This document shows, piece by piece, positions 12,641 to 47,378 of a DNA stretch of 64,000 bases. The stretch comes from Holophagae bacterium (lineage in GTDB: Bacteria > Acidobacteriota > Thermoanaerobaculia > Thermoanaerobaculales > Sulfomarinibacteraceae). The stretch's first letter is position 1. Each line of letters starts with the position of its first letter. The position numbers were made by a program, and so were the translations under genes. Below the pieces are notes generated by a model. It made no database searches. It worked only from the letters and a program-made list of their open reading frames with translations, and was not told the DNA's origin. The stretch lies in contig PQAJ01000177.1 of NCBI GenBank assembly GCA_003105185.1, forward strand, positions 14,848 through 78,847, given 5' to 3'.

Positions 12641-12679
12641 AATTGTCGAGTGTCGAGGGGCGGATTGTCGATTCGGGGG
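12641..12679. repeat. heptamer tandem array (a), TGTCGA/AATCGAC type, degenerate
   Basis: aattgtcgagtgtcgaggggcggattgtcgattcggggg. It aligns over its whole length with array (f) at 46057..46094. It ends 5 nt from the ybaK GTG. Confidence 0.8.
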
Positions 12680-12685
12680 TTGGGG

Positions 12686-12861
12686 GACTCGCAGTCGCGC
12701 GGCTCCGCCCCCGCTTAATGACCCTGACGTTCGCGGCAGGCTCCCAAGGTCCCCGCACCCCCGCGCCACGGCCGAAGGCCGGGCGCGGGCAGGAGGCAGG
12801 CCGGCGTCCGGGCTGGGTGGTTGGTTGGGGTGAATAAGCGGGGGCGGAGCCCCGCGACTCC
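12686..12861. repeat. REPIN-like element, left copy
   Basis: Ends are inverted repeats (cagtcgcgcggctccgcccccgctt ... aagcgggggcggagccccgcgactcc), each containing an imperfect GCGGGGC/GCCCCGC palindrome. The core ggccgaaggccgggcgcgggcaggaggcaggccggcgtccgggctgggtggttggttggggtgaataagcggggg is identical to the right copy. Confidence 0.8.
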
Positions 12862-12877
12862 GGTATGATGACGTGTC

Positions 12878-13363
12878 GTGCGGTATCCCAAGACGATTCG
12901 CCGGCCCGACAAGGCTGAGTATGCTGATGTCGAACGCTGCTTCCACCTGACCATCCGTGCTCACCCGGAGGTGCATCGTTTCGCTCCGGCAGTTGCGGAG
13001 GCTGTCTGGCGCTCTGTCCTGCAGCAACGCGATCTGCCGCACGTCGAACTGCACGCCGCCTGTCTCATGCCCGACCACCTCCACCTGCTCGTTTCGCCGC
13101 GTGAGCGGGACATCATCGCTTTCGTGCGGACGTGGAAGTCGTGGACAACCCGGCTCGCTCGCGAAGCCGGGCACGCGTTGCCACTCTGGCAGCCGGGCAT
13201 GTGGGATCGCACCTGCCGTGATGAGGCCGACTTCGAGGTGACCGCCACCTATATCGTTCAGAACCCGGTGGTTGCGGGTCTGGTGGACGATGCCAGCCAA
13301 TGGCCGCACACGTGGGCGTTTTGGATGGAGTCGCGGGGCTCTGCCCCCGCTTCATGGCCCTGA
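12878..13363 (+). CDS. REP-associated tyrosine transposase (RAYT, IS200/IS605 Y1 HUH superfamily)
   Basis: 161 aa with a GTG start, the HUH motif in MPDHLHLLVSP and a catalytic-Tyr region TATYIVQNPVVAGLVDDASQWPH. The last ~12 codons and the stop are encoded by the right REPIN. Confidence 0.8.
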   Translation: MRYPKTIRRPDKAEYADVERCFHLTIRAHPEVHRFAPAVAEAVWRSVLQQRDLPHVELHAACLMPDHLHLLVSPRERDIIAFVRTWKSWTTRLAREAGHALPLWQPGMWDRTCRDEADFEVTATYIVQNPVVAGLVDDASQWPHTWAFWMESRGSAPASWP

Positions 13364-13500
13364 CGCTCGCGGCCAGCCCACCTGTTTTCGCACACCCCCC
13401 CGCGCCATGGCCGAAGGCCGGGCGCGGGCAGGAGGCAGGCCGGCGTCCGGGCTGGGTGGTTGGTTGGGGTGAATAAGCGGGGGCAGAGCCCCGCGCCTCC
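13327..13500. repeat. REPIN-like element, right copy
   Basis: ggagtcgcggggctctgcccccgctt ... aagcgggggcagagccccgcgcctcc, in the same orientation as the left copy. It ends 13 nt before the tlyA ATG. Confidence 0.8.
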
Positions 13501-13513
13501 GTACAATTCCCCC

Positions 13514-14257
13514 ATGCCACGCCTCCGCGCTGACCTGCTCCTCCTCCAACGCAACCTGGCGCCGACGCGCGAGGCGGCGCAGCGGCTCATTTTGGCCGGG
13601 CGGGTGCGGTCGGGGACGCTGGTGCTTGTCAAGCCCTCGCAGATGCTGGCGGAGGATGCCGAGCTCGCGGTCTCGGAGCCGGAACGGTACGTCTCGCGCG
13701 GGGGGCACAAGCTCGAAGGCGCGCTGTCCGGGTTCGGGATCGACGTGACCGGGTTGCGCTGCCTCGACCTCGGCGCTTCAACCGGCGGGTTCACCGATTG
13801 CCTGTTGCAGCACGGGGCGGCCTCGGTGTTCGCGGTCGACGTGGGGCGGGCTCAGCTGCACCAGCGCCTGCGCGAGGACCCGCGCGTGACGCTGCTCGAA
13901 GGCACGAACGCGCGCGCTCTGCCGGAGCTGCCGCCCATCGACTTCTTCGTGGCCGACCTGTCGTTCATCTCGCTGGCGAAGGTGTTGCCCTCGGTGGCGG
14001 AGCGGCTGGCGCCGGGCACGCCGGGGGTGGTGCTGCTCAAGCCCCAGTTCGAAGCCGGGCCGAAGGACGTGCCCCGCGGCGGAGTCATCCGCGACGGAGC
14101 GGTGTTGCAGCGCGTTTGTGACGAGTTCGTAAACCGCGCGACGAGCGAGGGGTGGCGCGTCTGTGGCATCATTCCCTCGCCCATTCGCGGAGGCGATGGC
14201 AATACGGAGTTTCTCGTGCATCTGATCTCGCCCTCGGGTCGTGTCGAACCATGCTGA
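13514..14257 (+). CDS. tlyA: TlyA-family rRNA 2'-O-methyltransferase
   Basis: ATG at 13514. It has an S4-like N-terminus (RADLLLLQRNLAPTREAAQRLILAGRV), YVSRGGHKL and the SAM motif LDLGASTGGFTDCLL. Confidence 0.85.
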   Translation: MPRLRADLLLLQRNLAPTREAAQRLILAGRVRSGTLVLVKPSQMLAEDAELAVSEPERYVSRGGHKLEGALSGFGIDVTGLRCLDLGASTGGFTDCLLQHGAASVFAVDVGRAQLHQRLREDPRVTLLEGTNARALPELPPIDFFVADLSFISLAKVLPSVAERLAPGTPGVVLLKPQFEAGPKDVPRGGVIRDGAVLQRVCDEFVNRATSEGWRVCGIIPSPIRGGDGNTEFLVHLISPSGRVEPC

Positions 14258-15105
14258 AGCGCGCGGTGGTCTTCCACGCGCCGCGCAGCGAGGGCGCGGC
14301 GGCGTTCGCGAACCAGCTTGCGCAGGAGCTGGAGCGACGCGGCGTCACCTGCACCGTCGGCGATGTCTGGGGCCCGCCGCCCATGGCTGCCATCGAAAGC
14401 GCCGGCGTGGTGATTTGTGTCGGCGGCGATGGGACGGTGTTGCGCGCGAGCCGGGTGACGGTGCCGCACGGCATCCCCATCCTCGGCGTGAACATGGGCC
14501 GGCTGGGGTTCCTGACCGACATGAGCCCGCGCGACTGCTTCAACCACGTCGAACGCATCGTCGCCGAGGACTGGCGCATCGAAGAGCGGCTGATGGTCCG
14601 CTGCGACGTGATGGATAACGGCCAAACGATCCACAGCCACGTAGGGCTGAACGATATCGTGGTCAGCCGGAACTCGCCCGGCCGGCCGGTGTACGTCGAC
14701 GTGCACATCGATGGCGCGCGGCTGGCCATCTACCGCTGCGACGGCATCATCGTGTCGACGCCGACAGGGAGCACGGGGTACTCGCTGAGCGCGGGCGGGC
14801 CCATCCTTGCGCCGACAGAGCACCACCTGGTGCTCACGCCGGTCTCGGCGCACCTCGCGCTCGGGCGGGCGCTGGTCCTGCAACCCGACGCGCTCGTCGA
14901 GATGGAGGTCACCTCTGACCACGGTGCCATCGTGAGCATCGACGGCCAGGAAGACATCCCGATCGACTCCGGAGTGCGAGTAGTGGTGCGCACGAGCGAC
15001 CACGTCACGCGGTTCGTCCGCTTCCGCGAGCCCGCGACGTTCTACGCCGAGCTGGCCGAGAAGCTCGAGATGCAGCTCTCGAGCGCCATGACTCCGCGTG
15101 CTTGA
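14251..15105 (+). CDS. nadK: NAD+ kinase
   Basis: The ATG at 14251 overlaps the tlyA end. It carries the GGDGT motif (VICVGGDGTVLRA), NMGRLGFLTD and IVSTPTGSTGYSLSAGGPIL. Confidence 0.9.
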   Translation: MLKRAVVFHAPRSEGAAAFANQLAQELERRGVTCTVGDVWGPPPMAAIESAGVVICVGGDGTVLRASRVTVPHGIPILGVNMGRLGFLTDMSPRDCFNHVERIVAEDWRIEERLMVRCDVMDNGQTIHSHVGLNDIVVSRNSPGRPVYVDVHIDGARLAIYRCDGIIVSTPTGSTGYSLSAGGPILAPTEHHLVLTPVSAHLALGRALVLQPDALVEMEVTSDHGAIVSIDGQEDIPIDSGVRVVVRTSDHVTRFVRFREPATFYAELAEKLEMQLSSAMTPRA

Positions 15106-16777
15106 ACGTCTCGAAATCACCGACTTCGCGGTAGCCCGTTCGGTCGTGATCGAACCGGGGCCGGGGCTCACGGTGTTCACCGGCGAGACCGGCGCGGGAA
15201 AGTCGCTGGTGGTCGATGCGCTGGCGTTCGTATTCGGGGCGCGCAGGGGACGCGAGGTCATCGCCACCGGCGCCGAACGGGCGGTGGTGCGCGCGACGGT
15301 CGCGCTCCCCGGGGGGCGCAAGACAATCGAGCGCTCGATCGCTCTCAGCGGCCGGACTTCGGCCCGGATCGATGACGCACCGGCGACGGTCGACGACCTG
15401 CGGGAACTCGCGGCCGGGCTGGTGGACATCCACGGGCAGTCCGAGCAGCTGTCGATCCTGCGCCCGCAGGTGCAGCTGGCCGTGCTCGACGAGTTCGCCG
15501 GGCTGGGGCCGCAGCGCGAGGCGGTGGCCGCGACAGTGCGGGAGCTGCGCGAAGCCCGGCGCCAGCTGCAGACGCTGACCACCGGCGCCCGCGAGCGGGA
15601 ACGGCTGGTCGAACAGCTGCGGTTCGAGGTGGACGAAATCGAGGGCGCGGAACTCCGTCCGGGCGAGGATGAGGAGCTGCGGCGGGAGCAAGCGGTGCTC
15701 GGCAACGCCGGGCGGCTGCTGGAGGACGCGGCCCTCGCTCTGGAGGCGCTGGACTCGGCGCCGGTGGGCGAGGCGGTACGCGCTGTGGGTGACCTCGCCG
15801 GACGCGACCCTTCGGCGGGCGAACTGGCCGAGCTGGCGACGGCTCTGGAATCCACAGCGAGCGACCTCGGGCGGGCATTGCGACAGTACTGCGACCGCGT
15901 CGAAGAGAACCCGGAGCGGCTCGCCGAAGTGGGCGAGCGGCTCGACCGGATGGCGCGGCTCTGCCGGAAGTACGGCGACACGGTGGCCGAGGTCATCGCC
16001 TATGGCCGGCAGGCGGCGGAACAGTTGGCGACGCTCACGGGCGCGGGGACCTCGCTCGAGGCGCTAAGCGAGCGCGAACAGGCGCTGCTGCGGCTGCTCG
16101 GCGAGCGGGCGACCGCGCTCTCCCGCGCCCGGCGCGGGGCCGCCGGTGACCTGGTCCACGCCATCGCGGCCGAACTCGAACACCTGGGCATGGGTGGGTC
16201 CACGCTCTCAGTCGGCTTTTCGTGCGAAGACGACGAGGCAGGCCCTGCAGTACCCGTGCCGGACTACGAGATCGTCATCACCCAGAGCCCCCTTGCAGGT
16301 GAGGGCGAACCGCACCCGCGCGCGTTCACCGAGAGCGGGGTCGACCGGATCGAGTTCCTGGTGTCGTTCAACCCCGGCGAGAGCCCGCGGCCGCTCTCGG
16401 CGGTGGCCAGTGGCGGGGAGACGTCGCGCTTCTTGCTCGCGCTCACGACGGCGCTAGGGAGGAGTGGCGAGGGCCGCATCGAGGTGCTGGACGAGGTCGA
16501 CGAGGGCGTGGGCGGACGCACGGGCGCGGTGGTCGGCGAGGCGCTGCTGCGGCTCGCCGCGCGCCACCAGGTGCTCTGTATCACCCACCTGCCCCAGGTC
16601 GCCGCGTACGGCGACCGCCACTTCGTGGTGACGAAGCAGACGGACGGTGCGCGAACGTGGAGCGAGGTCTGCGCAGTCGCCGGCGAAGCGCGCGTTCAGG
16701 AGCTGGCGGCGATGCTCGGCGGGCAGGGCGCGGAGAACGTTGCCGCGGCGCGCGCCCTGCTCCGCCGGGAAACCTGA
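15098..16777 (+). CDS. recN: DNA repair protein RecN
   Basis: 559 aa with N-terminal Walker A FTGETGAGKSLVVDAL, a long coiled-coil middle and a C-terminal signature/Walker B region (ASGGETSRFLLAL...VLDEVDEGVGG). Confidence 0.93.
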   Translation: MLERLEITDFAVARSVVIEPGPGLTVFTGETGAGKSLVVDALAFVFGARRGREVIATGAERAVVRATVALPGGRKTIERSIALSGRTSARIDDAPATVDDLRELAAGLVDIHGQSEQLSILRPQVQLAVLDEFAGLGPQREAVAATVRELREARRQLQTLTTGARERERLVEQLRFEVDEIEGAELRPGEDEELRREQAVLGNAGRLLEDAALALEALDSAPVGEAVRAVGDLAGRDPSAGELAELATALESTASDLGRALRQYCDRVEENPERLAEVGERLDRMARLCRKYGDTVAEVIAYGRQAAEQLATLTGAGTSLEALSEREQALLRLLGERATALSRARRGAAGDLVHAIAAELEHLGMGGSTLSVGFSCEDDEAGPAVPVPDYEIVITQSPLAGEGEPHPRAFTESGVDRIEFLVSFNPGESPRPLSAVASGGETSRFLLALTTALGRSGEGRIEVLDEVDEGVGGRTGAVVGEALLRLAARHQVLCITHLPQVAAYGDRHFVVTKQTDGARTWSEVCAVAGEARVQELAAMLGGQGAENVAAARALLRRET

Positions 16778-16784
16778 GGTTGAC

Positions 16785-18002
16785 CTACAGGAGGTCGCTC
16801 TCGAAAGCGCTGATCGAGAGGATCGGCGGCAGGGTGCCGGGCAGGCGCTCCCAGTGGTCGCCGCCGTCGCGGCCCATGTAGACCTGGCCGTTCGTCGTCC
16901 CGACGTAGACGCCTTCGGAGTCGGCCCCGTCGGTGTCCATCGCGTCGCGATAGGCGCTCTGGTAGTCGTGCGGGCCGGGGAGGCCGTTCTCGAGGCGAGC
17001 CCACGATTGCCCACTGTCGGTCGTCCGGTAGACGGCGAACTGGCCCGGGCAAACGCGGAAGTTATCGGCCGCGAACTCCAGCGGTACGACGAACACGGCA
17101 TCGGGTCCGCGCTTTGTCACCGCCAGCGGGAACCCGTGGAACGACGGGAGGCCCTCCGTGACATCGTTCCAGCTGCCGCCGCCGTCATCCGAGCGGAAGA
17201 CGCCGATGTGGGCCTGTCCCCACAGGCGGTCCGGGTTCTTTGAGTCCATGCGGAACTTGTGGAACTCGTTGGCGGCGGCCGGGTCGACGCCTTCCGGCAC
17301 TTCGAAGCCGTCGCCGAAGTCCATCTCCTCCATCGCCTTGAGCATTGCCCGGGCGCCGGGGTTGGTCGCGACGCAGTTGTGGGAGGTGTTCTTCCAGGTC
17401 TTGCCGCCATCGCTCGTGGCGTAGGTGCCGCCTGAGGCAATCGAGGCGAAGATGTGGTTGCCATCGCGGGGGTCGATCTCGATCCCGTGAAGGCTGGATG
17501 CGCCGCCGCCGGTCGGGTACCAGTACTTGCGCTCGGGGTGGTAGATGAGGCTTTCGACCGGCGCCCAGCTTTCACCGCGGTCGTCGCTGCGGAAGAGGCC
17601 GGCAGGCTGGGTGCCGGCCCAGACCACTCCCGGCTGGCTCGGGAGGCCCGGGGTGATGGCCCAGACGTTCTCGACCGTTACCGGCCCACGGTCAGTCATG
17701 CCGCCGGAGGCATCGAAATTGAGGTTGGGGATCGGGCGCGCCGGGTCCTGGGGGAAGGCAAGGCCGGGCGTGTTGAGTTCCCAGGTCTTCCCGCCGTCAT
17801 CGCTGCGGGCGACTGAGCGCCCCCATGCCCAGTGATTCGAGGCCGCGAAGATGCGCGGGCGGCTCTCGCGGGTGTCGACGGTCATGCTGAAGATCGAGGA
17901 GCCGCGCATGAGCGGCTCGGAGACGTCCCATTGGCTGCGGGCGTTGTTGGAGGTATAGATGAAGGCGCCTTTGCGGGTGCCGACGAGGACGTGAACGCGT
18001 GG
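16785..18002 (-). CDS. BNR/Asp-box repeat beta-propeller protein (sialidase/GH74-like fold)
   Basis: Six Asp-box-like motifs (RSDDGGKTW, RSDDRGESW, TSDGGKTW, RSDDGGGSW, TTDSGQSW, GRDGGDHW). TTG start at 18002 preceded by AGGAGGA with a 5-nt spacer. Confidence 0.7.
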   Translation of the reverse strand, partial: PRVHVLVGTRKGAFIYTSNNARSQWDVSEPLMRGSSIFSMTVDTRESRPRIFAASNHWAWGRSVARSDDGGKTWELNTPGLAFPQDPARPIPNLNFDASGGMTDRGPVTVENVWAITPGLPSQPGVVWAGTQPAGLFRSDDRGESWAPVESLIYHPERKYWYPTGGGASSLHGIEIDPRDGNHIFASIASGGTYATSDGGKTWKNTSHNCVATNPGARAMLKAMEEMDFGDGFEVPEGVDPAAANEFHKFRMDSKNPDRLWGQAHIGVFRSDDGGGSWNDVTEGLPSFHGFPLAVTKRGPDAVFVVPLEFAADNFRVCPGQFAVYRTTDSGQSWARLENGLPGPHDYQSAYRDAMDTDGADSEGVYVGTTNGQVYMGRDGGDHWERLPGTLPPILSISAFESDLL

Positions 18003-18059
18003 CAAGAAGGTCCTCCTGTAGTGAGAGGAGGAAAAGTATACTAACTCTACTGAGCGATC

Positions 18060-18091
18060 AAGACGGGCGCCCCCCCGGGGGCGCCCGTCTT
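18060..18091 (-). terminator. GC-rich hairpin downstream of the CAP-domain gene
   Basis: AAGACGGGCGCC-ccccc-GGGGCGCCCGTCTT, 28 nt after the stop at 18119. It has no clear U-tract. Confidence 0.4.
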
Positions 18092-18118
18092 CGTCGTAAT
18101 CTGCTGCCAGCCGGTCCG

Positions 18119-19273
18119 TTACTCGGCGACGCGAAGCTGGGACGCCTGGTTGGCGATGACCCAGTAGGCCCCGCCCTTGTTCAGGCGGGCGAGGTTGTTC
18201 AGGTAGGCCGGCAGCCCGGGGAAGTAGCGTCGCCACTCACCGGTCGTGGGATTCCACTCGTAGACCACCTTGATGGAGGAGTTTCCGGCGAACGCCTGGG
18301 CGGGCGGGACACTGTCTCCGGGCCAGGCGACCAGGTTCGCGCCAGGCGACAGGGGCAGCGAGGGAGTGCCGGGTGTCGGCGAACCCGGTGCTCGGGTGGG
18401 CGCGGGAATCGGTGTGTTGGTTGGGGCGAGCGTCGGCGCCTTTGTCGGTGTCGCCGGGGCTGCCGTGGGCGTGTTGGCCGGGCTCGAGCCGGCGGGCTGC
18501 GGAGTCGGGGTGCTGGTGGGCACGAACGGGGTCGGCGTGGGTGTGGTCTGTCCGCCGGGATTGCCCTGGTTTACCGTGGGCGTGCTCGTGGGAGGCATCG
18601 AGGTGGGAGTGGCGGTCGGCTGAGCCGGCGTTGGGGTGTTCGTGGGGAGCGGCGTACTGGTTGGCGGGAATGGCGTGTTGGTGGGTTGACCGCCACCGCC
18701 GCCGCCGTCGTCTCCACCGCCGCCGCCGCCAGTGCCGTCGTTCGTCGTACCGAAGGTCGTGGCCCAGTACCAGCCATACTGCGAACCGGCCTGGTAGTGG
18801 CGGGCGATGCCGATCTGCTTGTAGTACTGGCCGAGCATATTTGCGTTGTGCCCGGGAGAGTTCTGCCAGGCGTTAAAGGCTGCCTGTGCCGAGCTCCAGG
18901 CGCCGCCCGCAGCCAGGTTCTCGCCAGCGCCAGAGGGGTAACCGCAGTCTATGGCGCGCTGGTAGGCAGAGCGCCCCAGCGAGTCGGTGTGCGCGAAGTA
19001 GTTGTTCGTCGCCAGGTCTTCGGTCATCCATGCGGAGCCGCGGTTCAGGTTCGTCGAAATGGTCAGCGCGCCGAGACCGTTCTGGGACCGGTAGTTGTTG
19101 ATGAGCGTGAGGAAGGCGAGCTCTTCTGAGTCATTCCCGTCGTGGGTGACGGTGCAGTTGGTGAGAGCGCCGGCGCGGTTATCGTCGGCGAACGTCATCG
19201 CAAAGGCGGCGAGCAGCGCCCCCATGATGGCGAGCGCCAGCGGCAGTAGGCCGCGGTGTGTCCTGATGTGCAT
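18119..19273 (-). CDS. secreted CAP/SCP (PR-1-like) domain protein with Gly- and Pro/Thr-rich linker and C-terminal domain
   Basis: Signal/anchor LLPLALAIMGALLAAFA. CAP-like core (LINNYRSQNGLGAL...NYFAHTD...GENLAAG...WQNSPGHNANML). About 130 aa of G/P/T low complexity, then an ~80 aa C-terminal domain. Confidence 0.7.
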   Translation of the reverse strand: MHIRTHRGLLPLALAIMGALLAAFAMTFADDNRAGALTNCTVTHDGNDSEELAFLTLINNYRSQNGLGALTISTNLNRGSAWMTEDLATNNYFAHTDSLGRSAYQRAIDCGYPSGAGENLAAGGAWSSAQAAFNAWQNSPGHNANMLGQYYKQIGIARHYQAGSQYGWYWATTFGTTNDGTGGGGGGDDGGGGGGQPTNTPFPPTSTPLPTNTPTPAQPTATPTSMPPTSTPTVNQGNPGGQTTPTPTPFVPTSTPTPQPAGSSPANTPTAAPATPTKAPTLAPTNTPIPAPTRAPGSPTPGTPSLPLSPGANLVAWPGDSVPPAQAFAGNSSIKVVYEWNPTTGEWRRYFPGLPAYLNNLARLNKGGAYWVIANQASQLRVAE

Positions 19274-19417
19274 CGATTCCCCCGGGGCGCCGTGTGTTTC
19301 GCAAGGAGCCTGTTAGAGGAATCGACCGCGGAACGGGGCCAGCCGGTGAACGCCGGGTGACCGGGATGGGACGAAGCGGAGCGCCTTTCCTTTGTGAGCG
19401 ACCCCGCTCGGGGAATT

Positions 19418-19792
19418 TCAGGGGGTGCGCGACCGGTAATTGGCGATTGCGCCGCGAAGCGCGTCTGCCGCGAGCACGCTGCAGTGCACCTTGTCGCCCG
19501 GGAGCCCGCCGATCGCCTCGGCGATGCGCTCGCGGGTCAGGGATTCCACCTCTTCGAGCGTCCAGCCGCGCACCATCTCGCTGGTGAACGAGCTCGTGGC
19601 GATGGCGGGGGGACAGCCACGCGTTTGCCAGCGAACCTCGGCCACGTGCCCGTCCGCGACCCGGATGGTGACGCGCATGCGGTCGCCGCAAACCGGGTTG
19701 GACTTCGTCGCCTCACCGTCGGGGTGTTCGATCTCGCCGGCGTTGCGGGGATTCTGGAAGTGTTCGATGACCGTGTCGGAGTAGGCTGCCAC
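19418..19792 (-). CDS. Fe-S cluster assembly scaffold, NifU N-terminal/IscU-SufU type
   Basis: 124 aa with HFQNPRNAGE, NPVCGDRM, TRGCPPAIATSS and the HCSVLA cysteine ligand pattern. Confidence 0.85.
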   Translation of the reverse strand: MAAYSDTVIEHFQNPRNAGEIEHPDGEATKSNPVCGDRMRVTIRVADGHVAEVRWQTRGCPPAIATSSFTSEMVRGWTLEEVESLTRERIAEAIGGLPGDKVHCSVLAADALRGAIANYRSRTP

Positions 19793-19825
19793 CTGGAAAC
19801 GGTAGCAGGTTGGGGATGCGCGGTG

Positions 19826-20329
19826 TCAGGCGAGGCCGAGCGCGCGGAAGATCTCCTCGAAGGTCGAGACGCTGCCCGGGTTGAAGTGGGGGAGGGCGTA
19901 GGTGACGCGCCCGTCCGGATCGAGGATAACGACGCCGCGGCGTGACTTTGCCTCGTCCGGGTCCCACATGCCATACGCCTTTACGACTTCGCCGTAGAAG
20001 TCGCTGATGAGCGGGAAGGGGTAATGGTCGCGCTCCTGAAAGCGGCGGTGAGAGCCGAGCCCGTTGGTGTTGATCGCCAGCACCTGCACGCCCGCCTCCG
20101 CAAGCAGGGCGTGCTCCTGGGCGAACGCCTTCAGCTCGCTCGTGCACACGGGCATCCCGTCGTCCTGGTAGAACACCAGCATGACTGGCCCCGCAGCGAG
20201 GAGCTCGGCGAGGTCCGCGTCGAACTGGGAGCCGTCCGCGCGGATTGCGGGGAGGGTAAAGCGCGGGGCCTGGTCGCCGGGGGCGAGCGGTGTCTCGCGG
20301 GGCGTGAGCGCGGGCCTGGTGTCGCTCAC
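19826..20329 (-). CDS. peroxiredoxin / AhpC-TSA (redoxin) family protein
   Basis: 167 aa with APRFTLPA...VMLVFYQDDGMPVCTSE (peroxidatic Cys context) and a thioredoxin-fold remainder. Confidence 0.8.
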   Translation of the reverse strand: MSDTRPALTPRETPLAPGDQAPRFTLPAIRADGSQFDADLAELLAAGPVMLVFYQDDGMPVCTSELKAFAQEHALLAEAGVQVLAINTNGLGSHRRFQERDHYPFPLISDFYGEVVKAYGMWDPDEAKSRRGVVILDPDGRVTYALPHFNPGSVSTFEEIFRALGLA

Positions 20330-21402
20330 CCGGCGGCCTCGAACCCGGGTGGCACACCCTCGATGCCGCTGGTGGCGGCCAGCACTCGGATGCGGCCCAG
20401 GCCGGCGCCGTCGGCCAGCTGTTCGAGCGCGCGGCGCCGGGCGAAGTACTCCTGCATATCGCTCCGGGCCGCATCGACCAGCCCGCCGATGCCGAGGGCG
20501 TAAAGGAACTCCGACTGGGAAACCGGTCCGAAGATGGTCATGCCCTCGTCTTCGCCGGCCGCGGCGAGTTCAGAGAAGTTCACATGGGTGGTGATGTCCT
20601 GTTCGCCAACATGGAGGTAGGGGTCTTCGTGGGCGGTGTGGCGATAGAAGCAGAGGAGGGTGCCGGTGGTGCGCCACGGGGCCCAGAGCTCTTCCTGGGG
20701 GTAGCCGTAGTCGAAGACGAGCACCGAACCGCGTTCGACCAGCGAGCAGAGGCTGCGCATCACTGGATAGGCGCGCTGATTGACCTCGAACCGGCCCTCC
20801 ATGGGCGCGCCATCGATCGAAGCGATACCTCCGGGCTGCTCGACGAACCGCTCGCCATCCCAGCGGACATACACCTCCACGGGGCCGCGCGGACCAGCAT
20901 CGAAGAGCCGCACCGGCAAGGCGTCGAAGAGCTCGTTGGTCACCACGACCCCGCTCGGGGCCGGCGCGACCGGTGGCGTGGCCCACTCGACCCGCGGGTC
21001 CGTGCCCGGGCTGTTTGGTTCGAGGGCAACATAACGGATGGCTTCACGGAAGCCGTCGCCGCGGCCTTCGGCCCAGTCGAGGATGGCGGTGGCGAGCGCG
21101 CCCTCCCCGGCGGCAGGTTCGAAGATGGTGAACTGCGCCGGCTCGCCGAGCCGAGCCCACGCATCGCGGCACCATGCCGCGATCGCCCACCCGAACATCG
21201 GGTGGATGACCGGGCTGGTGAGGAAGTCGCCCTGGCGGCCGATGCGCCCCGGCTTGCGGTAGTAGCCGTGCTCCGGGTGGTAGAGCGCCAGTTCCATGAA
21301 GCGTTCGAAGGAGATAGCGCCGCCGGCCATCTCATCGACGATGGCCTGGATGAGCTGTGGGTTGCCGAGAGCGGCGGTTCCGGGGTCGAGGTCCAGCGCC
21401 AT
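20326..21402 (-). CDS. class I SAM-dependent methyltransferase, MidA/NDUFAF7 (DUF185) family
   Basis: 358 aa with FERFMELALYHPEHGYYRK...GDFLTSPVIHPMFG and FEPAAGEGALA. Confidence 0.8.
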   Translation of the reverse strand: MALDLDPGTAALGNPQLIQAIVDEMAGGAISFERFMELALYHPEHGYYRKPGRIGRQGDFLTSPVIHPMFGWAIAAWCRDAWARLGEPAQFTIFEPAAGEGALATAILDWAEGRGDGFREAIRYVALEPNSPGTDPRVEWATPPVAPAPSGVVVTNELFDALPVRLFDAGPRGPVEVYVRWDGERFVEQPGGIASIDGAPMEGRFEVNQRAYPVMRSLCSLVERGSVLVFDYGYPQEELWAPWRTTGTLLCFYRHTAHEDPYLHVGEQDITTHVNFSELAAAGEDEGMTIFGPVSQSEFLYALGIGGLVDAARSDMQEYFARRRALEQLADGAGLGRIRVLAATSGIEGVPPGFEAAG

Positions 21403-21541
21403 GTGTCCAGTATCGCGAGCAAACCGCTGAGGAGCACGGGCGCCGCCGATGTGAGTGGCGTGATGGAACCCGGCCCCCTGTCGCCATCCGGCCGCCGCCT
21501 GTTACCCTGCGGGCTGCGAAGTCCTTCGCACGAGGCTAACC

Positions 21542-22045
21542 GTGTCGACTTCTCCTCCGGCGTCCGAGCACGCGGTCGATACCGCCATCCGCTACTTCGG
21601 CAAGACGGTCAACATGTTCGACCCGCTCCGCTTCCGCGCATGGGCTGAAATGGGCCTGACAACTGCCCAGCTGCGCGTGCTCTTTCTCGTTCGCGAGTCC
21701 CCAGGGGTTACTGCGGGCGAGCTGGCGCACAAGATCGGCGTGACTCCCCCGACGATTTCGGGCATCGTCGACCGTCTCGTGAAGATGGACCTGGTGCGGC
21801 GCGAGGACGACGAGTCCGACCGGAGGCTGGTGCGGAACCTGCTCACCGAGCAGGGGGACGCAACCTGCAGCCGGATGGAGCAGAGCACGGAGATCTTCAC
21901 ACGACGCATCCTCATCGAGATGAACCACGAGGACCTGGATGCGTTCATCACGGGCCTCAGGGCCTTCGCCAACGCCAGCGAGTACGTCTCCCGCGTGGAG
22001 CCCGACCTCGCGGCGGTCGCAATGCCGGGGTTGAATTACGCATGA
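21542..22045 (+). CDS. MarR-family transcriptional regulator
   Basis: 167 aa with wHTH LTTAQLRVLFLVRESPGVTAGELAHKIGVTPPTISGIVDRLVKMDLVRRE. GTG start, and an ATGA overlap with the next gene. Confidence 0.85.
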   Translation: MSTSPPASEHAVDTAIRYFGKTVNMFDPLRFRAWAEMGLTTAQLRVLFLVRESPGVTAGELAHKIGVTPPTISGIVDRLVKMDLVRREDDESDRRLVRNLLTEQGDATCSRMEQSTEIFTRRILIEMNHEDLDAFITGLRAFANASEYVSRVEPDLAAVAMPGLNYA

Positions 22046-22752
22046 CGACACGGAAACGGGTTCGGACGATTGACCTGGAGAATCCCTTCGCGGACTCGTT
22101 CGAGGGGATGTGCGAGGTGCTGCTGGTGCGCCATGGCGAGCAGCAGTTCTTCGACAACATCCCGCTGGGGCAGGCCTACGACGCGCCGCTTTCGGCACTG
22201 GGCAAGCGGCAGGCCGAGGCGGTCGGCGAGCGGCTGGCGCCGGCCCGCATCGGCCGGGTGTACACCAGCAACATGCGCCGAGCGCACGACACGGGCCAGG
22301 CTATTGCCAGGCATCACGGGCTCACGCCGGTCGTGGAGCCGGACCTCCGCGAGATCGACCTCTGGCAGCGCGCCCCGCAGGACAAGGGCCTGCTGGACAT
22401 CTACTCGCGGGAGCAGCTCGCCGACATCTATCGCGAAGTGACGCGGACGCGCAAGCACGACGCCTATCCGTACTGCGAAGATGTCGATGCGTTCCGCACC
22501 CGCGTATTCAGCGCGTTCGACCAGATCGTGGAAGAAAGCATCGGTATGCGTGTCGTGGTGGCATGTCACGGCGGGGTCATCAACGCGATCCTGAGCCGGG
22601 TGCTCGGCTCCGTCTTCGACCACCTGGTCTCGGTACACCACACCAGCATCACGGTCATGCGGGCAGCCGACACCCGCCGCTTCCTCCTGACCATCAACGA
22701 CTACTCCCACGTGATGGAGTTCCAGAAGTCGCGCGGCGACATGAACGCCTGA
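22042..22752 (+). CDS. histidine phosphatase (phosphoglycerate mutase-like) family protein
   Basis: It has the RHG motif (VLLVRHGEQ), a second catalytic His region (VVVACHGGVI) and SNMRRAHDT. Confidence 0.8.
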   Translation: MTTRKRVRTIDLENPFADSFEGMCEVLLVRHGEQQFFDNIPLGQAYDAPLSALGKRQAEAVGERLAPARIGRVYTSNMRRAHDTGQAIARHHGLTPVVEPDLREIDLWQRAPQDKGLLDIYSREQLADIYREVTRTRKHDAYPYCEDVDAFRTRVFSAFDQIVEESIGMRVVVACHGGVINAILSRVLGSVFDHLVSVHHTSITVMRAADTRRFLLTINDYSHVMEFQKSRGDMNA

Positions 22753-23444
22753 TGGAGCTGCTGAAGCCGGACGCTTCGTGGTTCGAAATCGACCCGGAGT
22801 ACTACCGGCATGGTGGCAGTTGCCTCAACCTGGCCGAGTCTGAAGGCATTGGCGTCCACGCCGGGCAGGCGATCCTCGTCGCGCCGCCGGGGAACGGGGA
22901 AGAGGCGCTTTCCTTCATGAACCTCGGTGCCGAGGTTACGGTCCTCGGCGACAGTCAGATGCTCGAACCGGTGCGGAAGCTGGCTGACGGCGCCGGCATG
23001 CAGGTAACCCTTGCCGCCGGCGACGCGAATGACCCCGGCGCAGCCTTCGGCGAAGAGGCCTTCGACGCCGTCTACTGCCCCTGGGGGACAATCGACTGGC
23101 TGGAGGCGTTCGACACGTGGGCGGAGAGCGTTGCCAACGTGCTCAAGCCGGCCGGGCGCCTCGTGCTCTACGACCGCCACCCGGTCTCCAGCGTCGGCGC
23201 GGCGCATAAGGGGCTGTTCGTGGTCGGCAAATCGTACTTCGGCGACGACGACCCGAAGGGCCACGGCTGGACGCTCGGCGATCTGATCAGTTCACTGGGG
23301 GCCGAAGGCCTGGCGACGATGTTGTTCGACGAGTTTCCTGATGCGGACCGCTTTCCGACGCCGCTGGACGGCCTCGGGATCCGCTGGGATATCCGCTGGA
23401 GGCTGCCGGCGGCGATGCTGCTGGTGGCCATCCGCGTGCGCTAA
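22752..23444 (+). CDS. probable class I SAM-dependent methyltransferase
   Basis: The ATG at 22752 overlaps the upstream TGA. The region ILVAPPGNGEEALSFMNLGAEVTVLGDS ... VLKPAGRLVL resembles MTase motifs I and post-I. The upstream part of ORF 22110..23444 is a frame artefact. Confidence 0.6.
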   Translation: MELLKPDASWFEIDPEYYRHGGSCLNLAESEGIGVHAGQAILVAPPGNGEEALSFMNLGAEVTVLGDSQMLEPVRKLADGAGMQVTLAAGDANDPGAAFGEEAFDAVYCPWGTIDWLEAFDTWAESVANVLKPAGRLVLYDRHPVSSVGAAHKGLFVVGKSYFGDDDPKGHGWTLGDLISSLGAEGLATMLFDEFPDADRFPTPLDGLGIRWDIRWRLPAAMLLVAIRVR

Positions 23445-23460
23445 CCGTCCGGAGGAGCTC

Positions 23461-26302: not shown

Positions 26303-26308
26303 GTGATC

Positions 26309-38834: not shown

Positions 38835-38862
38835 GAGGAGCGAGGAGGGAGGAGCGAGGAGT
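38835..38862. repeat. heptamer tandem array (c), GAGGAGC type
   Basis: gaggagc gaggagG gaggagc gaggagT, about 90 nt upstream of the nuoI start in the nuoI / lipoprotein-gene spacer. Confidence 0.75.
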
Positions 38863-40124: not shown

Positions 40125-40964
40125 TTATACGGATCGTGTCGAGCGCGGCACCGCCGCTTCCACCGCTTCGGTTAAGTCGACCGGTTCGAGCGGCGGTACC
40201 ACGAGACTCCCGGTGGCCACCGCCCGCAGCGTTTCGACCATGAACGGGCGTTCGCGGGCGACGCCGCGCGCCCGGATGTCGGCGTAGAGCGGCATTGCCA
40301 TGATCTCGTTCAGGCTGGCCGCGCCGATCCCGCTGGCGGAGAGCGCTTCCCATGCCGGCTCGTTTGCCGCATCTCGGATCGGGAAGCGGCAGTAGCTGAC
40401 GGCCGGGCCGCGGTCCACGTCGCCGGTCACCAGGTTCACCATGCAGCCCGACTCCAGCGCCCGCGTGCGCATCAGCTCGGCGATGACCTCCTGGTAGGTG
40501 CCGATCGGGCCATCCGGCAGCGCGGGGTGGTCGTTGATAAAGGTGAACTTCGAGTAGAGCGGTTCGGTGGCGATGAGCATGTAGCCGAACATCACACCGA
40601 GCGTGAAGTCGTAACCGGAAAGGGTGCGGGTCACTTCGGCGTCGTAGTCGAAGCGCCAGGGTTGGAGCGGCTCGCCGGGCTTGCCGATCTTGCCGCCGCG
40701 CGCCTTGCGGAACGCCACCGATGACATCGTCTCGACGCGGATGGCGTTGGCGTCGAGCATCTCGATGAGCCGGTCGGTGGGCTCGGCCTCGCCGCGGTCG
40801 CGGTTGATGAAGACGACGGCGATCTCGACCGGCAGCCCACCCTCGATGGCCTCGAGCAAGTACTCGAGCGCCCCGTACGACCCGGGGCCGCGGCCGGTGG
40901 TGAGCCACGCGATGCGAAGCGACGGCGTCACCGGCGGCCACACGACAAGGAAACACAGGGGCAT
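40125..40964 (-). CDS. formyltransferase-fold protein (PurN-like)
   Basis: 279 aa. INDHPALPDG and GDVDRGP resemble the PurN N-H-D catalytic triad contexts. Substrate unknown. Confidence 0.5.
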   Translation of the reverse strand: MPLCFLVVWPPVTPSLRIAWLTTGRGPGSYGALEYLLEAIEGGLPVEIAVVFINRDRGEAEPTDRLIEMLDANAIRVETMSSVAFRKARGGKIGKPGEPLQPWRFDYDAEVTRTLSGYDFTLGVMFGYMLIATEPLYSKFTFINDHPALPDGPIGTYQEVIAELMRTRALESGCMVNLVTGDVDRGPAVSYCRFPIRDAANEPAWEALSASGIGAASLNEIMAMPLYADIRARGVARERPFMVETLRAVATGSLVVPPLEPVDLTEAVEAAVPRSTRSV

Positions 40965-40986
40965 AGAGGCGCGGAGGAGATTGTGA

Positions 40987-41021
40987 ATTTCCGATCTCCG
41001 ATTTCGGATTTCCGATTGCAG
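40987..41021. repeat. heptamer tandem array (d), ATTTCCG (= AATCGGA on minus) type
   Basis: atttccg atCtccg atttcGg atttccg attGcAg. It ends 22 nt upstream of the ATG at 40964. Confidence 0.8.
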
Positions 41022-41122
41022 AGGTGGCCGGGGGAGGTGAAGGGGCGTGTCCCGTGGTCCGCCCGAGTGCCGCTCCCTGCCGGTCGCGGCTCTGAGGATC
41101 CTCGGAACGTCGGCACCGCAAA

Positions 41123-41157
41123 GAATCGTGAATCGTGAGTCGTGAATCGTGAATCGG
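41123..41157. repeat. heptamer tandem array (e), GAATCGT (AATCGTG) type
   Basis: gaatcgt gaatcgt gaGtcgt gaatcgt gaatcgG, 24 nt downstream of the xseB stop. Its AATCG core is on the opposite strand to that of array (d). Confidence 0.85.
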
Positions 41158-41180
41158 CCCGGCGCATCGGGGCCTCTCGG

Positions 41181-41432
41181 TCAGTCGCGGTCATCGGCGT
41201 CGTACTCGGCTTCGACTTCGTGGAGCTGCATTTCATCCTCGTCCAGCCGGGACTGGAGCGTCTTTACCTGGAGCTCGGCCTTTTCGAGGATGGCCCTGAG
41301 CTGGTCGACGAGCTTCGCCCCGTCTTCGTACAGGCGCAGCGATTCCTCGAGCGGGAGGTTTCCCTGTTCGAGGCGGCGCGCCTTCTCTTCCAGCGCGGCG
41401 TAGAGCGATTCGAAGGTCGGTTCAGAGGCCAT
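41181..41432 (-). CDS. xseB: exodeoxyribonuclease VII small subunit
   Basis: 83 aa with FESLYAALEEKARRLEQGNLPLEESLRLYEDGAKLVDQLRAIL. It overlaps the xseA stop. Confidence 0.85.
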   Translation of the reverse strand: MASEPTFESLYAALEEKARRLEQGNLPLEESLRLYEDGAKLVDQLRAILEKAELQVKTLQSRLDEDEMQLHEVEAEYDADDRD

Positions 41433-44462: not shown

Positions 44463-44465
44463 GAG

Positions 44466-45608
44466 TCACACTCCTGCGGGTGTCAGTTTTCGCGCATGGC
44501 TGAGCACGCGGGCCCGGCCGTTTTCGAGGACCACGATGTCTTCGATCCTCACGCCGCCCCATCCGGGCAGATAGATGCCGGGCTCAATGGTAAACACCAT
44601 TCCCTCTTCCAAGACATCTTCGGACGATGTTCCAAGGTACGGGTCTTCGTGGACATCGAGCCCGACCCCGTGCCCCAGGCCGTGCCCGAAGCGATCGCCG
44701 TAGCCCGCCGCGGCGATTACGTCCTGTGCGAGCAGGTGTGCGTCCGAGGCCTTCATGCCGGCTTCGATACCTGCGATCGCCGCCTGCTGGGCCTCGAAGA
44801 CGATGCCGTAAACCTCGCGGAACTTCGCATCCGGCTGACCGATGACAACCGTGCGCGTGAGGTCGCTGCAGTACCCCTCGTAGCGCGCGCCCATGTCGAT
44901 GACCACCGGCCGATCGGTGCCCAGCCGCTCCGCGCGGGGGCTCGCATGTGGCATGGCGCTCCACGGCCCCCCGGCGACGATCGTCGGGAACGAGATGTCT
45001 TCACCGCCCGCCGCCTTCACGTTCGCGGCGAAGACCTCGGCGGCTTCGAGTTCGGTCATCTCCGGAGTGAGCGCAGTCTCCAGCCGTTCGAAGGCGTCAT
45101 CGGAGATGTGGATCGCGCGCTGGAGGAGGGCGAGCTCCTCCGGGTCTTTCTGCCGGCGGAGTTTCTCGATGATGCCCTTGGCCGGGACGAACTCGGGGCG
45201 GTCTGGTCCGGGCAGTGGCTCCAGGTAGTCGAGCATCGAAAGGTAACCCGCGTAGGAGAGGTCCCGCGTGGAGACTCCGACGCGTTTCCCGGCGAGGTCC
45301 GCTTCCCCGATGAGCTTCGGGAACCACTCCTTGCGCGCGCCGAGGGCAGGAAAGACTTCGAAGCCGCGGGGACCGCACTCGCGTTCGGCCTGTTCGATGT
45401 AGCGAAAGTCGGCGGCGAAGATGGCCCGGTCGCGGGTGACCAGCACCTGGCCTGTCGAGCCGGTGAAGCCGCTGATGTACCGGCGCGTGGCGGCGCCCAG
45501 CTCCTCTTCGCCGGGCGCGGAGACGAGGAGCGCGTCGAGGTTGCGCTCCTGGAGCTCGATGCGGATCCGGGTGAGGCGGTCGGTCATGGCGGCTCCCGCC
45601 GGTGTCAC
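44466..45608 (-). CDS. pepP: Xaa-Pro aminopeptidase (M24B family)
   Basis: It has the M24 metal-ligand contexts ([47 protein letters not shown]). The GTG at 45608 forms a GTGA overlap with the aroQ stop, and an alternative ATG lies at 45587. Confidence 0.88.
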
Positions 45609-46051
45609 GCCCCGGCCCGCGCCTCCAGGTGGTCGACGAGGAGGTTGGTCGCGACAGTGTAGCCAGCGCGACCCAGCCCGGTCACCTGCCCGAGGCAGAC
45701 CGGGGCGATGAAGGAGCGGTGGCGGAAGCCTTCCCGCGCGTGGGTGTTCGAGATGTGGACCTCGACGACCGGGAGCTGGACAGCCTCGATCGCGTCGCGG
45801 AGCGCTACCGACGTGTGGGTGTAGGCCCCGGCGTTGATGACGACGCCATCGGCCAGCTTGCGGTGCTCGTGGAGGAAATCGATGAGCGAGCCCTCGTGGT
45901 TGCTCTGGTAGCAGAGGACGGCCGCCCCCCGCGCTCCCGCCGCGGCTGCAACGTCGGCCTCAATGTCGAGCAGCGTGGTCGTGCCGTAGACAGCCGGGTT
46001 GCGCTCGCCGAGGAGGTTCAGGTTCGGCCCGTGGACGAGGAGCAGGTTCAC
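45605..46051 (-). CDS. aroQ: type II 3-dehydroquinate dehydratase
   Basis: GTG at 46051 gives [48 protein letters not shown] and [12 protein letters not shown] are present. An upstream GTG at 46105 would add 18 aa encoded by the heptamer array. Confidence 0.9.
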
Positions 46052-46056
46052 GGGTG

Positions 46057-46094
46057 AATTGTCGATTGTCGATTGGCGGTTGTCGATTGGGTGG
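46057..46094. repeat. heptamer tandem array (f), ATTGTCG (= AATCGAC on minus) type
   Basis: aattgtcg attgtcg attgGcg Gttgtcg attgGGtgg. It ends 5 nt from the aroQ GTG and is homologous to array (a). Confidence 0.85.
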
Positions 46095-46189
46095 TAGCGC
46101 GGCACCGGTTAACACGGAGGCCGGGAGACAGGAAGAATTGGAAGAAACACTGCCCGCACTGTGGAGGCCCTCTCCGGTAGACTTTGGCC

Positions 46190-46342
46190 ATGAGATGGCT
46201 GCCATCACAGTGGTTACGTTGGCATCGGCGCCGGCGACTGCGAGATCAGGAACTTCGCCGCTACGATGCCACCATGGCCCGGTTGGAAGGCAAGGTGCGG
46301 ATCGGCCGCAAGCTCTCTCGCGACGAAATGAATGAGCGCTGA
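46190..46342 (+). CDS. possible small basic protein (50 aa)
   Basis: Read by hand; it is below the ORF-track size cutoff. MRWLPSQWLRWHRRRRLRDQELRRYDATMARLEGKVRIGRKLSRDEMNER. It fills the aroQ-xerC spacer. I recognise no family. Confidence 0.2.
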   Translation: MRWLPSQWLRWHRRRRLRDQELRRYDATMARLEGKVRIGRKLSRDEMNER

Positions 46343-46400
46343 GGCCTGCGCGACAGACTCACCACTCTGATTCCCGCCCTCGCGCCTCCTTTTTCCGGGC

Positions 46401-47378
46401 TCAGGCGGAGCGTGAGCGCTTTCGGCGGGGGCCCTCGAGTGCCTGTTCCGCGACCTTCTCCCAGGCGGCAGCGCTGACCTGGGCCTGGCGGGCCTGCGAG
46501 ACGTGCGTGTAGATCTGAGTCGTATTGGCCGAGGAGTGACCGAGGAGGTCCTGGACGATCCGCAGGTCGGCACCGCCATCGAGCAGGTGAGTCGCGAACG
46601 AGTGGCGGAGGAGGTGGGGATGGACGTCCGCGGCGATCCCGGCGGCGACCGCGTGCCGCTTGATGAGCGTCTGGACCGAGCGCGCGGTCAGGCGGCCGCC
46701 GAAGCGGTTGAGGAAGAGGGGATTTCCGATTTCCGGTTTCCGATTTCCGATTTCCGATCGGAGGGCCGGGCGGGCGGATTCCAGGTAGGTTTCGAGCGCG
46801 CGCATGGCGGGTTCGCCGAAGAGGACGAGGCGCTCCTTCGATCCCTTCCCGTGGATGATGGCAGACCCGTCGGCGAGGCTGACCTGGCTCAGATCAAGCG
46901 AGACGAGCTCGGAGATGCGCAGGCCGCCCCCGTAGAGGAGCTCGAACATGGCCCGGTCGCGGAGGCCCTGTGGGGTTGAGGGGTCGGGGGAGGCGAGGAG
47001 CGCATCGAGGAGGGCCGGGTCGAGCACTTTCGGCAGCCGCTTCGGGCGCTTCGGCAGGGCGACGCCGTAGAGGAGGTCGCGCTCGGTGGCGCCCTCGCGG
47101 TGGAGGTACTTGTAGAAGCCGTGGACGGTGCTGGTCCGGCGTGTGATCGAGGCGGCGACCATGCCGGATTCCTTCAGCTGGGTGAGGTACTCGCGGAAAA
47201 CCTGGCGCGTCGTCCGGAGGGGTTCCTGGCCCTGGTCGCCGCACCAGGCGAGAAAGCTGCCGATATCGGTGCGGTAGTTGCGGATGGTATAGGGCGAGCG
47301 CCCGCCGACAGCGCCGAGCTCGCGCAGGTAGGCTTCGAGAAAGGCTTCGGCGGATTTGTGGTGCGCCGGGCTTGGCAT
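46401..47378 (-). CDS. xerC: site-specific tyrosine recombinase XerC/XerD family
   Basis: 325 aa with an N-terminal SAM-like core-binding domain and catalytic residues in context (GLRISELVSL, HGKGSKERLV, HLLRHSFATHLL, LLGHSSANTTQIYTHV). Confidence 0.88.
   Translation of the reverse strand: MPSPAHHKSAEAFLEAYLRELGAVGGRSPYTIRNYRTDIGSFLAWCGDQGQEPLRTTRQVFREYLTQLKESGMVAASITRRTSTVHGFYKYLHREGATERDLLYGVALPKRPKRLPKVLDPALLDALLASPDPSTPQGLRDRAMFELLYGGGLRISELVSLDLSQVSLADGSAIIHGKGSKERLVLFGEPAMRALETYLESARPALRSEIGNRKPEIGNPLFLNRFGGRLTARSVQTLIKRHAVAAGIAADVHPHLLRHSFATHLLDGGADLRIVQDLLGHSSANTTQIYTHVSQARQAQVSAAAWEKVAEQALEGPRRKRSRSA
46722..46763. repeat. heptamer tandem array (g), ATTTCCG type, inside the xerC coding sequence
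   Basis: atttccg atttccg Gtttccg atttccg atttccg atcggag (42 bp). It is translated on the minus strand as SEIGNRKPEIGN within xerC. Confidence 0.85.

Follow-up and report, generated by a model that had tools for sequence, protein, structure and literature searches.

Heptanucleotide tandem arrays in a high-GC bacterial genome and a promoter reading of those with the AATCGAC unit

What short tandem arrays of 7-nt units do in a high-GC bacterial genome is the question raised by a 64,000-nt stretch of DNA deposited as Holophagae bacterium (assembly GCA_003105185.1, contig PQAJ01000177.1), hereafter the window (64 kb; GC 64–70%). Seven such arrays, lettered (a) to (g), are dispersed in it; all coordinates are positions in the window, and L-numbers denote loci of relatives or viral contigs. 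A composite account is on balance favoured, in which these are heptamer arrays typical of the lineage and not copies of one element, and those with the AATCGAC unit are promoters of leaderless genes. Taken by itself, the assignment of arrays (a) and (f) as such promoters is probably correct, given their consensus match and conservation.

The XerC-like protein that holds array (g) has its closest relatives (66–95% identity) in Chloroflexota metagenome-assembled genomes labelled Dehalococcoidia, Tepidiformaceae and Ca. Amarobacter. The window is assigned to a Chloroflexota genome of 67% GC, Tepidiformaceae-like within the Dehalococcoidia. Exact-protein look-ups led to strains of one and the same species, at 98.5–99.6% nucleotide identity, among them the 2.7 Mb contig JAOSJW010000001.1 of GCA_027493915.1, on which the strain locus L201 lies, and contigs of GCA_023954565.1; two of the look-ups matched nothing. 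Two of the proteins looked up are indexed in 56 and 97 blocks of the collection, and the species is present in many public samples.

Heptamer arrays in the window

Seven heptamer sites had been marked in an earlier note made from the letters of the window, and six of them, (b) to (g), were found there by Tandem Repeats Finder with 3.9–5.4 copies of a 7-nt unit (Table 1). Array (a) (12641–12679) is degenerate; it is recognisable by eye and received no call from the program. At a threshold of at least 3.5 copies and a score of at least 40, the window holds six period-7 arrays, compared with a mean of 0.015 and a maximum of one in 200 second-order Markov simulations of it, and zero arrays of the other periods from 4 to 12. 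Period 7 is also the commonest period of arrays with at least three copies in the window and its closest relatives, and not in unrelated loci fetched alongside. The view that these arrays are not a product of chance thus holds within the window, where their frequency exceeds that of randomised sequence. Head-to-tail 7-nt units in at least three to four copies, dispersed and above chance, place them in the class of heptanucleotide tandem arrays.

An AATCG core is common to five of the seven arrays ((a), (d), (e), (f) and (g)), as the earlier note had proposed. The pattern AATCGNNAATCGNNAATCG, a three-unit AATCG-periodic motif allowed up to three mismatches, gave 13 overlapping matches at (d), (e), (f) and (g), where 1.09 were expected, and none of 100 shuffles reached 13. 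A variant middle unit, which the note had ascribed to most arrays, is present in (b), (e) and (g) and only loosely so in (d) and (f). Part of this pattern is ascertainment, because a mutated end unit merely shortens the array that is recognised and only interior variants are visible. Rfam covariance models run against the window returned two tRNAs at gathering score and no known structured RNA family for the arrays.

Table 1. Arrays, promoter-like elements and neighbouring genes, in order of position.
Feature	Position	Strand	Tandem Repeats Finder	Description
Array (a)	12642–12679	minus		degenerate AATCGAC; -35 TCGACA 12671–12666; 18 bp spacer; -10 GACAAT 12647–12642; 6 nt; GTG 12635
ybaK-like tRNA-editing gene	12153–12635	minus		Pfam tRNA_edit match; GTG start 12635
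Non-array leaderless-type start	13514			TACAAT-N6-ATG
Ogt-like gene	24423–25220	plus
Array (b)	25219–25248		AGGCATG x4.3	GCATGAG x4, third unit GCGCGAG; starts at stop of Ogt-like gene; between convergent genes
Non-array leaderless-type start	28088			TATGAT-N6-GTG
nuoI-like promoter		minus		-35 TTTGTA 38824–38819; -10 TAGACT 38800–38795; ATG 38745
Array (c)	38835–38861	minus	GAGGAGC x3.9	CTCCTCG/CTCCTCC x3.9; directly upstream of -35 of nuoI-like promoter
Species-specific insertion, ~250 bp	40932–41180	minus		carries (e) and (d); splits xseB/formyltransferase-like junction
Candidate -10 of array (d)		minus		GAAATT 40991–40986 or CACAAT 40985–40980
Array (d)	40987–41017	minus	ATTTCCG x4.4	AATCGGA x4.4, ends AATTCAC as (f) does; upstream of formyltransferase-like gene
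Array (e)	41123–41156	plus	GAATCGT x4.9	AATCGTG x4.9; 26 nt past xseB stop; back-to-back with (d)
xseB stop codon	41183–41181	minus
aroQ, type II dehydroquinase	45605–46051	minus		GTG start 46051
Array (f)	46058–46089	minus	ATTGTCG x4.6	AATCGAC x4.6; -35 TCGACA 46086–46081; 17 bp spacer; -10 GACAAT 46063–46058; 6 nt; GTG 46051
XerC-like recombinase gene	46401–47378	minus		ATG 47378
Array (g)	46721–46758	minus	GATTTCC x5.4	AATCGGA x5.4, in frame in XerC-like gene; encodes RSEIGNRKPEIGNP in hypervariable loop
xerC leaderless promoter	47385–47407	minus		-10 CATACT 47390–47385; 6 nt; ATG 47378; 1.4-unit CTCCCTT remnant CTTCTCCCTT
Non-array leaderless-type start	49745			TTGACA-N17-TATCCT-N6-ATG

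AATCGAC arrays upstream of aroQ and the ybaK-like gene

On the minus strand, array (f) reads cccAATCGACAACCGCCAATCGACAATCGACAATtcaccc and is followed by GTG AAC CTG, the start of the type II dehydroquinase. A consensus scanner run on ~29 kb of sequence called TCGACA-17-GACAAT in it independently (9 of 12 consensus matches, A at -11, T at -7). The scanner returned three sigma-70-like sites in these ~29 kb, and two of them are arrays (f) and (a). Array (a), which reads AATCGACAATCCGCCCCTCGACACTCGACAATtcccgc on the minus strand and is followed by the GTG of the ybaK-like gene, contains TCGACA-18-GACAAT, again with nine of 12 matches, A at -11 and T at -7; it is the sole sigma-70-like call in 5000–24900. 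Exactly 6 nt separate GACAAT from the GTG in both arrays. Sigma-70-type hexamers with a 16–18 bp spacer, A at -11 and T at -7 are found in (a) and (f) and in none of (b), (c), (d), (e) and (g). The -10 element of (a) and (f) also stands at the distance seen at the organism's other genes, ending 6–7 nt ahead of a genuine start codon. Independent gene calls give the same starts for aroQ and the ybaK-like gene, for the latter in another strain.

The region upstream of aroQ was compared among 17 relatives, with box conservation assessed in eight species. The -35 TCGACA and the -10 GACAAT are 100% identical in all eight, and 6 nt separate the -10 from the start codon throughout; among the ten species that have the array this distance is exact in nine and is 7 nt, before GTG, in L022. 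Most species start aroQ with GTG and L004 starts it with ATG, a switch which argues that the start is genuine. The spacer is perfectly repetitive in L002, L005 and L007, carries two to four substitutions in the window, L008, L021 and L022, and is non-repetitive in L004 and L012, where the boxes are retained. Array (f) has the same length as its non-repetitive counterpart in sister species. Judged from these alignments, the constraint on the region is on the outer units, where the boxes lie, and the middle is free. The variant middle unit of (f) would follow from this, since the boxes occupy outer units only and inner units are free to mutate. The earlier suggestion that the arrays are under selection is borne out for at least two of them by the invariance of the outer boxes of (f). 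The distant relatives L014, L016, L017, L019, L020 and L024 have no such region; aroQ directly follows xerC in them, with overlapping stop and start codons in three.

Leaderless genes of Actinobacteria and Deinococcus-Thermus carry a TANNNT-type -10 element 6–7 nt before the start codon, and the same arrangement is seen here. When 334 open reading frames (ORFs) from the window and its relatives were tallied, TANNNT was most frequent at distances of 6 nt (21 cases) and 7 nt (13 cases) ahead of candidate start codons, the background being mostly 1–7. Leaderless mRNAs appear to be common in the lineage, because TANNNT sits 6–7 nt ahead of many start codons; three starts of this type that are not associated with arrays are listed in Table 1. 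Other genes of the window and of L001–L024 have short leaders with GGAGG. Unlike ordinary leaderless sigma-70-type promoters, arrays (a) and (f) build both hexamers and the spacer from one repeated heptamer.

The period of the unit suffices for this. The hexamer starts are 23 bp apart, which is 3 x 7 + 2, so that the first AATCGAC unit gives TCGACA and the unit three periods on gives GACAAT. In sequence, about 4.4 AATCGAC units span a complete sigma-70-type promoter with a spacer of 17 bp, and arrays (a) and (f) would drive leaderless transcription of the ybaK-like gene and aroQ. The arrays may arise and be homogenised by gain and loss of 7-nt units in DNA that is free to vary, that is, near gene starts, in intergenic spacers and in one tolerant protein loop; whether an array is kept or lost would depend on what it happens to encode. 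A broader proposition, that tandem heptamers are self-assembling sigma-70 promoters in general, with ~4.4 copies of a suitable 7-mer (ideally TTGACAA, here TCGACAA) sufficing by slippage alone, is doubtful. If it were true, later gain or loss of units could not disrupt the spacing of the boxes. It would also explain the excess of period 7 in many bacteria and phages, the sharp 31–33 bp mode of array length described below, and the pointing of arrays at start codons without ribosome-binding sites.

Several other features lie beside these two arrays. The segment 12700–13510 contains an IS200-like Y1 transposase gene (RAYT-like, PF01797, 12878–13363) with at least four flanking REP-like palindromes of approximately GGAGTCGCGGGGCTCCGCCCCCGCTTA. 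Inter-strain homology starts at the upstream edge of array (a), and from that edge another strain has unrelated sequence in place of the IS200-like/REP block. A tRNA-Pro(GGG) called by ARAGORN at 13988–14068 lies inside a protein-coding ORF, has no Rfam call and is probably a false positive. On the plus strand between xerC and aroQ, antisense to the genes and at approximate coordinates ~46109–46345, promoter-like TTAACA-18-AAGAAT precedes an apparent ORF of ~50 codons ending ...LSRDEMNER, for which no Pfam match was found.

Arrays in viral and metagenome contigs and the weighing of the promoter reading

The exact pattern (AATCGNN)x4 was found in at least 120 viral contigs (L081–L200; 1.08 Mb). 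Among the viral matches listed, 432 arrays have period 7 versus at most 85 for any other period, and the modal array length is 31–33 bp, a mode that is sharp and not decaying for AATCG and non-AATCG units alike. In AATCGNN arrays of this set the last AAT stands 5–6 nt before ATG, in the sense direction only; AAT in non-AATCG units is only 1.8-fold enriched. A metagenome sample comprised, among the matches listed, 70 perfect (AATCGAC)x4-or-longer arrays on contigs with a GC content of 55% or more. Of these 70, 20 have a credible ORF start at -2 to 11 nt in the sense direction, with a mode at 6–7 nt, and two have one in the antisense direction.

Further observations were made on the viral contigs. 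Even units that have neither the AATCG core nor G-tracts show the mode at 31 bp (four units plus 3 nt). In L150 (IMGVR_UViG_3300017991_000559) heptamer arrays occupy most intergenic gaps, several end 3–16 nt before ORF starts, and often two array types stand one behind the other, ATTTGAR first and AAATART second. L081 carries a TTTGGTC array, which we take to be STRR2-like. The terminase of an array-rich phage contig gave only matches of <30% identity to unrelated phages, by which its host was not identified.

The dominance of period 7 whatever the unit, in the window, in close relatives and in the viral matches listed, would agree with a neutral by-product: the arrays would be the residue of a 7-nt slippage bias, persisting where harmless, and the promoter likeness of (a) and (f) would be coincidental. 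No promoter is needed at (g), in a coding loop, or at (b) and (e), at 3' ends, and a 2007 report of heptamer excess in bacteria, as cited in PMC4692102, attributed that excess to polymerase slippage. Such an origin is nevertheless unlikely. It does not fit the outer boxes of (f), whose sequence is the same in eight species with differing spacers, nor the 6 nt to the start codon kept exactly in nine of ten species (7 nt in L022). The strong sense-orientation bias towards start codons, the lack of copy-number polymorphism among 2–11 strains or assemblies, and the sharp, non-decaying 31–33 bp mode argue against it as well.

Other observations weigh against reading arrays (a) and (f) as promoters. 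The assignment rests on consensus match and conservation, both read from the DNA. The conserved downstream block at aroQ is 11 nt (CAATCGACAAT), longer than the -10 hexamer, and also fits a protein reading two direct repeats 21 bp apart. Identical perfect arrays in three diverged species (L002, L005 and L007) imply that the units are homogenised while the length is constrained, or else that every base is selected. Arrays (d), (e) and (g), with units AATCGGA and AATCGTG, are without the A at -11 that is typical of -10 elements in the lineage; (b) and (e) lie at gene 3' ends, and (g) is intragenic. Among the viral matches listed, non-AATCG units resemble sigma-70 sites no better than permuted units do (7.89 versus 7.83, p = 0.43), and the variable NN shows no preference for the first, the last or any unit position. 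About half of the perfect AATCGAC arrays among the metagenome matches listed have no nearby ORF start.

The omega ribbon-helix-helix repressor of inc18 plasmids reads contiguous 7-bp heptads, and the arrays resemble omega operators in having contiguous 7-bp units at promoters. A protein might likewise read AATCG every 7 nt here, either on DNA or, as S1, a cold-shock protein or a ring-shaped RNA-binding protein, on the mRNA leader, so that the arrays would be binding sites forming a regulon. In many unrelated contigs NN varies even inside one array, with AATCG unchanged, and conservation at aroQ reaches beyond the hexamers. The arrays abut start codons without Shine–Dalgarno sequences in the way TAACTGA repeats do, for which RNA-binding proteins were proposed (PMC4679880). 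The regulon is still rather improbable: in L004 and L012 the inner units of (f) have fully decayed with gene and spacing kept, which is unexpected if every unit is bound; the genes next to arrays are unrelated housekeeping genes; and two arrays of this genome, (b) and (c), are built from unrelated units. The analysis identified no candidate for a protein that would bind the arrays, in which they differ from the omega operators.

The remaining arrays, their stability and known heptamer repeats

Arrays (d) and (e) lie in an inserted segment at a junction that is compact in eight other species, where xseB and the formyltransferase-like gene overlap as TGATG (L007, L008 and L012) or are a few bases apart (five others). 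Where inserted DNA breaks this junction or that of xerC and aroQ, an AATCGNN array adjoins the upstream side of the downstream gene. The formyltransferase-like gene starts at ATG 40964 or GTG 40931. Array (d) may replace the promoter that this gene lost on separation from its operon, and its GGAAAT is without an A at -11; by the mechanism proposed above it would probably supply a promoter to the gene that the insertion has separated. An RNA hairpin between the inverted arrays (d) and (e) was considered and rejected, its folding energy being equal to that of shuffles (z = 0.04). In L201 the same junction holds, instead of the (d)–(e) segment, a DUF559 gene bracketed by REP-like hairpins. This unit (L201 14865–15360, corresponding to window 40916–41190) has its hairpins inverted (CCCCTCACCCC...GGGAGAGGGG) and TGA on both sides, and resembles a small mobile unit that has inserted precisely into the TGATG overlap.

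The arrays could themselves be ends or footprints of a small spreading element. Arrays (d) and (e) flank a ~250 bp insertion absent from all other species compared, arrays stand at inter-strain homology breakpoints, the XerC loop of (g) holds a REP-like insertion in other species, and inverted pairs are common among Xanthomonas repeats (PMC4692102). A mobile origin is very improbable all the same. In a BLAST comparison with the window and all fetched loci (64 kb of genome and homologous loci), the interior of the (d)–(e) segment matched only the arrays themselves and is single-copy there, and no terminal inverted repeats or target duplication were found. Arrays (f) and (g) look like conversion in place and not insertion, because their length equals that of the non-repetitive sequence of sister species. 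A single propagating element, as suggested earlier, is not supported by the single-copy interior or by the seven sites, whose contexts are quite different.

Array (g) lies in frame in a variable loop of the XerC-like protein, where it is simply tolerated. This loop contains an array in the window, L201, L001 and L003, and in other species unrelated sequence or, in distant relatives, only seven residues. In L002, L005, L013 and L016 a REP-like hairpin lies in frame in it (corresponding to window 46715–46765) and is translated into ...PLARRSGRGAGGEG...; the loop seems to act as a common site of capture for short repeats. Array (g) differs from that of L201 by three substitutions in interior units, with no change of length. 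This strain comparison is weakened because the xerC frame of L201 appears broken: at L201 8675–9655 the gene is frameshifted near codon 131, upstream of the array, and the gene caller kept the last 182 residues, which reflects either a pseudogene or an assembly error. A further array is found upstream of the xerC promoter, where the window retains only a remnant; CTCCCTT is present in four units in L201 and three in L005, and L012 has eight imperfect units of CGCCCTT. Homology between the window and L201 breaks at this site.

Array (b) is identical in five strains at 99.0–99.4% identity. Beside it, in 23900–25220, an ECF-type sigma factor gene (region 2 and region 4 domains) overlaps the downstream gene for a 265-residue protein with an Ogt-type DNA-binding domain. 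Array (c) is present in the window, L201 and L007; it is missing in L012 and L004, where the core nuoI-like promoter is still conserved. It differs from its L201 counterpart by four substitutions at unchanged length.

The other strain comparisons agree in showing no change of length. Array (e) is identical in 11 assemblies and array (f) in two strains (window and L201); array (d) keeps its length across the 10 assemblies that cover it, two of which carry two point substitutions in the last units. With (b) compared in five strains and (c) and (g) in two, every array open to comparison kept its copy number in the 2–11 strains or assemblies of the species that cover it, and the earlier idea of a slippage hot spot does not agree with this. 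The arrays are not contingency loci and not hypervariable, and very probably they are not mobile. Tandem 7-bp promoter repeats reportedly mediate phase variation of Haemophilus influenzae hmw, and the present arrays are like them in having contiguous 7-bp units at promoters and unlike them in that no copy-number variation was seen. That the arrays are phase-variable contingency loci of the simple-sequence-repeat kind, or G-quadruplex-forming repeats, is barely credible: the former is contradicted at the population depth sampled. For the latter, Xanthomonas GGGAATC repeats do fold into G-quadruplexes in vitro (PMC4692102). The units here are without a G-tract of at least three, so that no canonical intramolecular G3-type quadruplex is expected, and the modal length of ~4.4 units holds also for units without G-tracts. 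For this last reason the four-G-tract explanation given for Xanthomonas is not general.

The STRR of heterocystous cyanobacteria, to which no function is assigned, are tandem heptanucleotide arrays scattered over the genome, with more than one unit sequence in each genome. To our knowledge, no link of cyanobacterial STRR with promoters has been described. The arrays of the window are STRR-like in form, as had been said of them: they too are dispersed tandem heptamers with several units in one genome. They differ from STRR proper in phylum, base composition and unit sequence, the relatives being Chloroflexota metagenome-assembled genomes and the units AATCGNN, GCATGAG and GAGGAGC. Cyanobacterial STRR are mentioned in the account of heptamer repeats of Xanthomonas (PMC4692102).

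The earlier note knew of no equivalent in a high-GC genome, but two descriptions from 2015 speak against there being none. The GGGAATC repeats of Xanthomonas are dispersed in a high-GC host, mostly in four units, intergenic and near ORF ends, with unresolved function (Rehm et al. 2015, PMC4692102); inverted pairs are frequent, with paired arrays on opposite strands nearby. GGGAATC is AATCGGG in another register, and the present arrays share the dispersal, the high-GC host, the approximately four units, the mostly intergenic position near ORF ends and the pairing of neighbouring arrays on opposite strands. They differ in phylum, in having no G-tracts and in that AATCG is read on the sense strand, immediately ahead of start codons. 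Xanthomonas-type arrays of (GGGANTN)n have a G-tract of three in at least four units, whereas AATCGAC, AATCGGA and AATCGTG have at most GG. In marine Beggiatoaceae, two to six tandem TAACTGA heptamers run towards, and nearly touch, start codons without a ribosome-binding site (MacGregor 2015, PMC4679880). A related variant unit interrupts some sets, a few sets are intragenic, and the genes downstream are housekeeping genes; a translational role was proposed (PMC4679880). The present arrays are alike in pointing at start codons, in their variant units, in being sometimes intragenic and in their housekeeping neighbours. TAACTGA is a different unit and not promoter-like, whereas the arrays here match -35 and -10 boxes with leaderless spacing.

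Heptamer repeats have thus been detailed in Xanthomonas, Nostoc and Beggiatoaceae, with no agreed function (PMC4692102, PMC4679880), and no description of heptamer arrays was found in the literature for Chloroflexota. The arrays of the window are a further case of a known repeat class, STRR-like in form, and not a new kind of element. What the analysis adds is a reading of the AATCGAC arrays as promoters of leaderless genes built from one unit. The region upstream of aroQ in eight species forms a series from a -35/-10 promoter with a non-repetitive spacer to a perfect array of 4.7 units, with the spacing to the start codon fixed. If the promoter reading is wrong, the arrays are an ordinary example of that class. 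If it is true, it would offer a simple and testable reason for the period, length and position of the arrays, which would then be useful as markers of transcription starts in the annotation of uncultured genomes.

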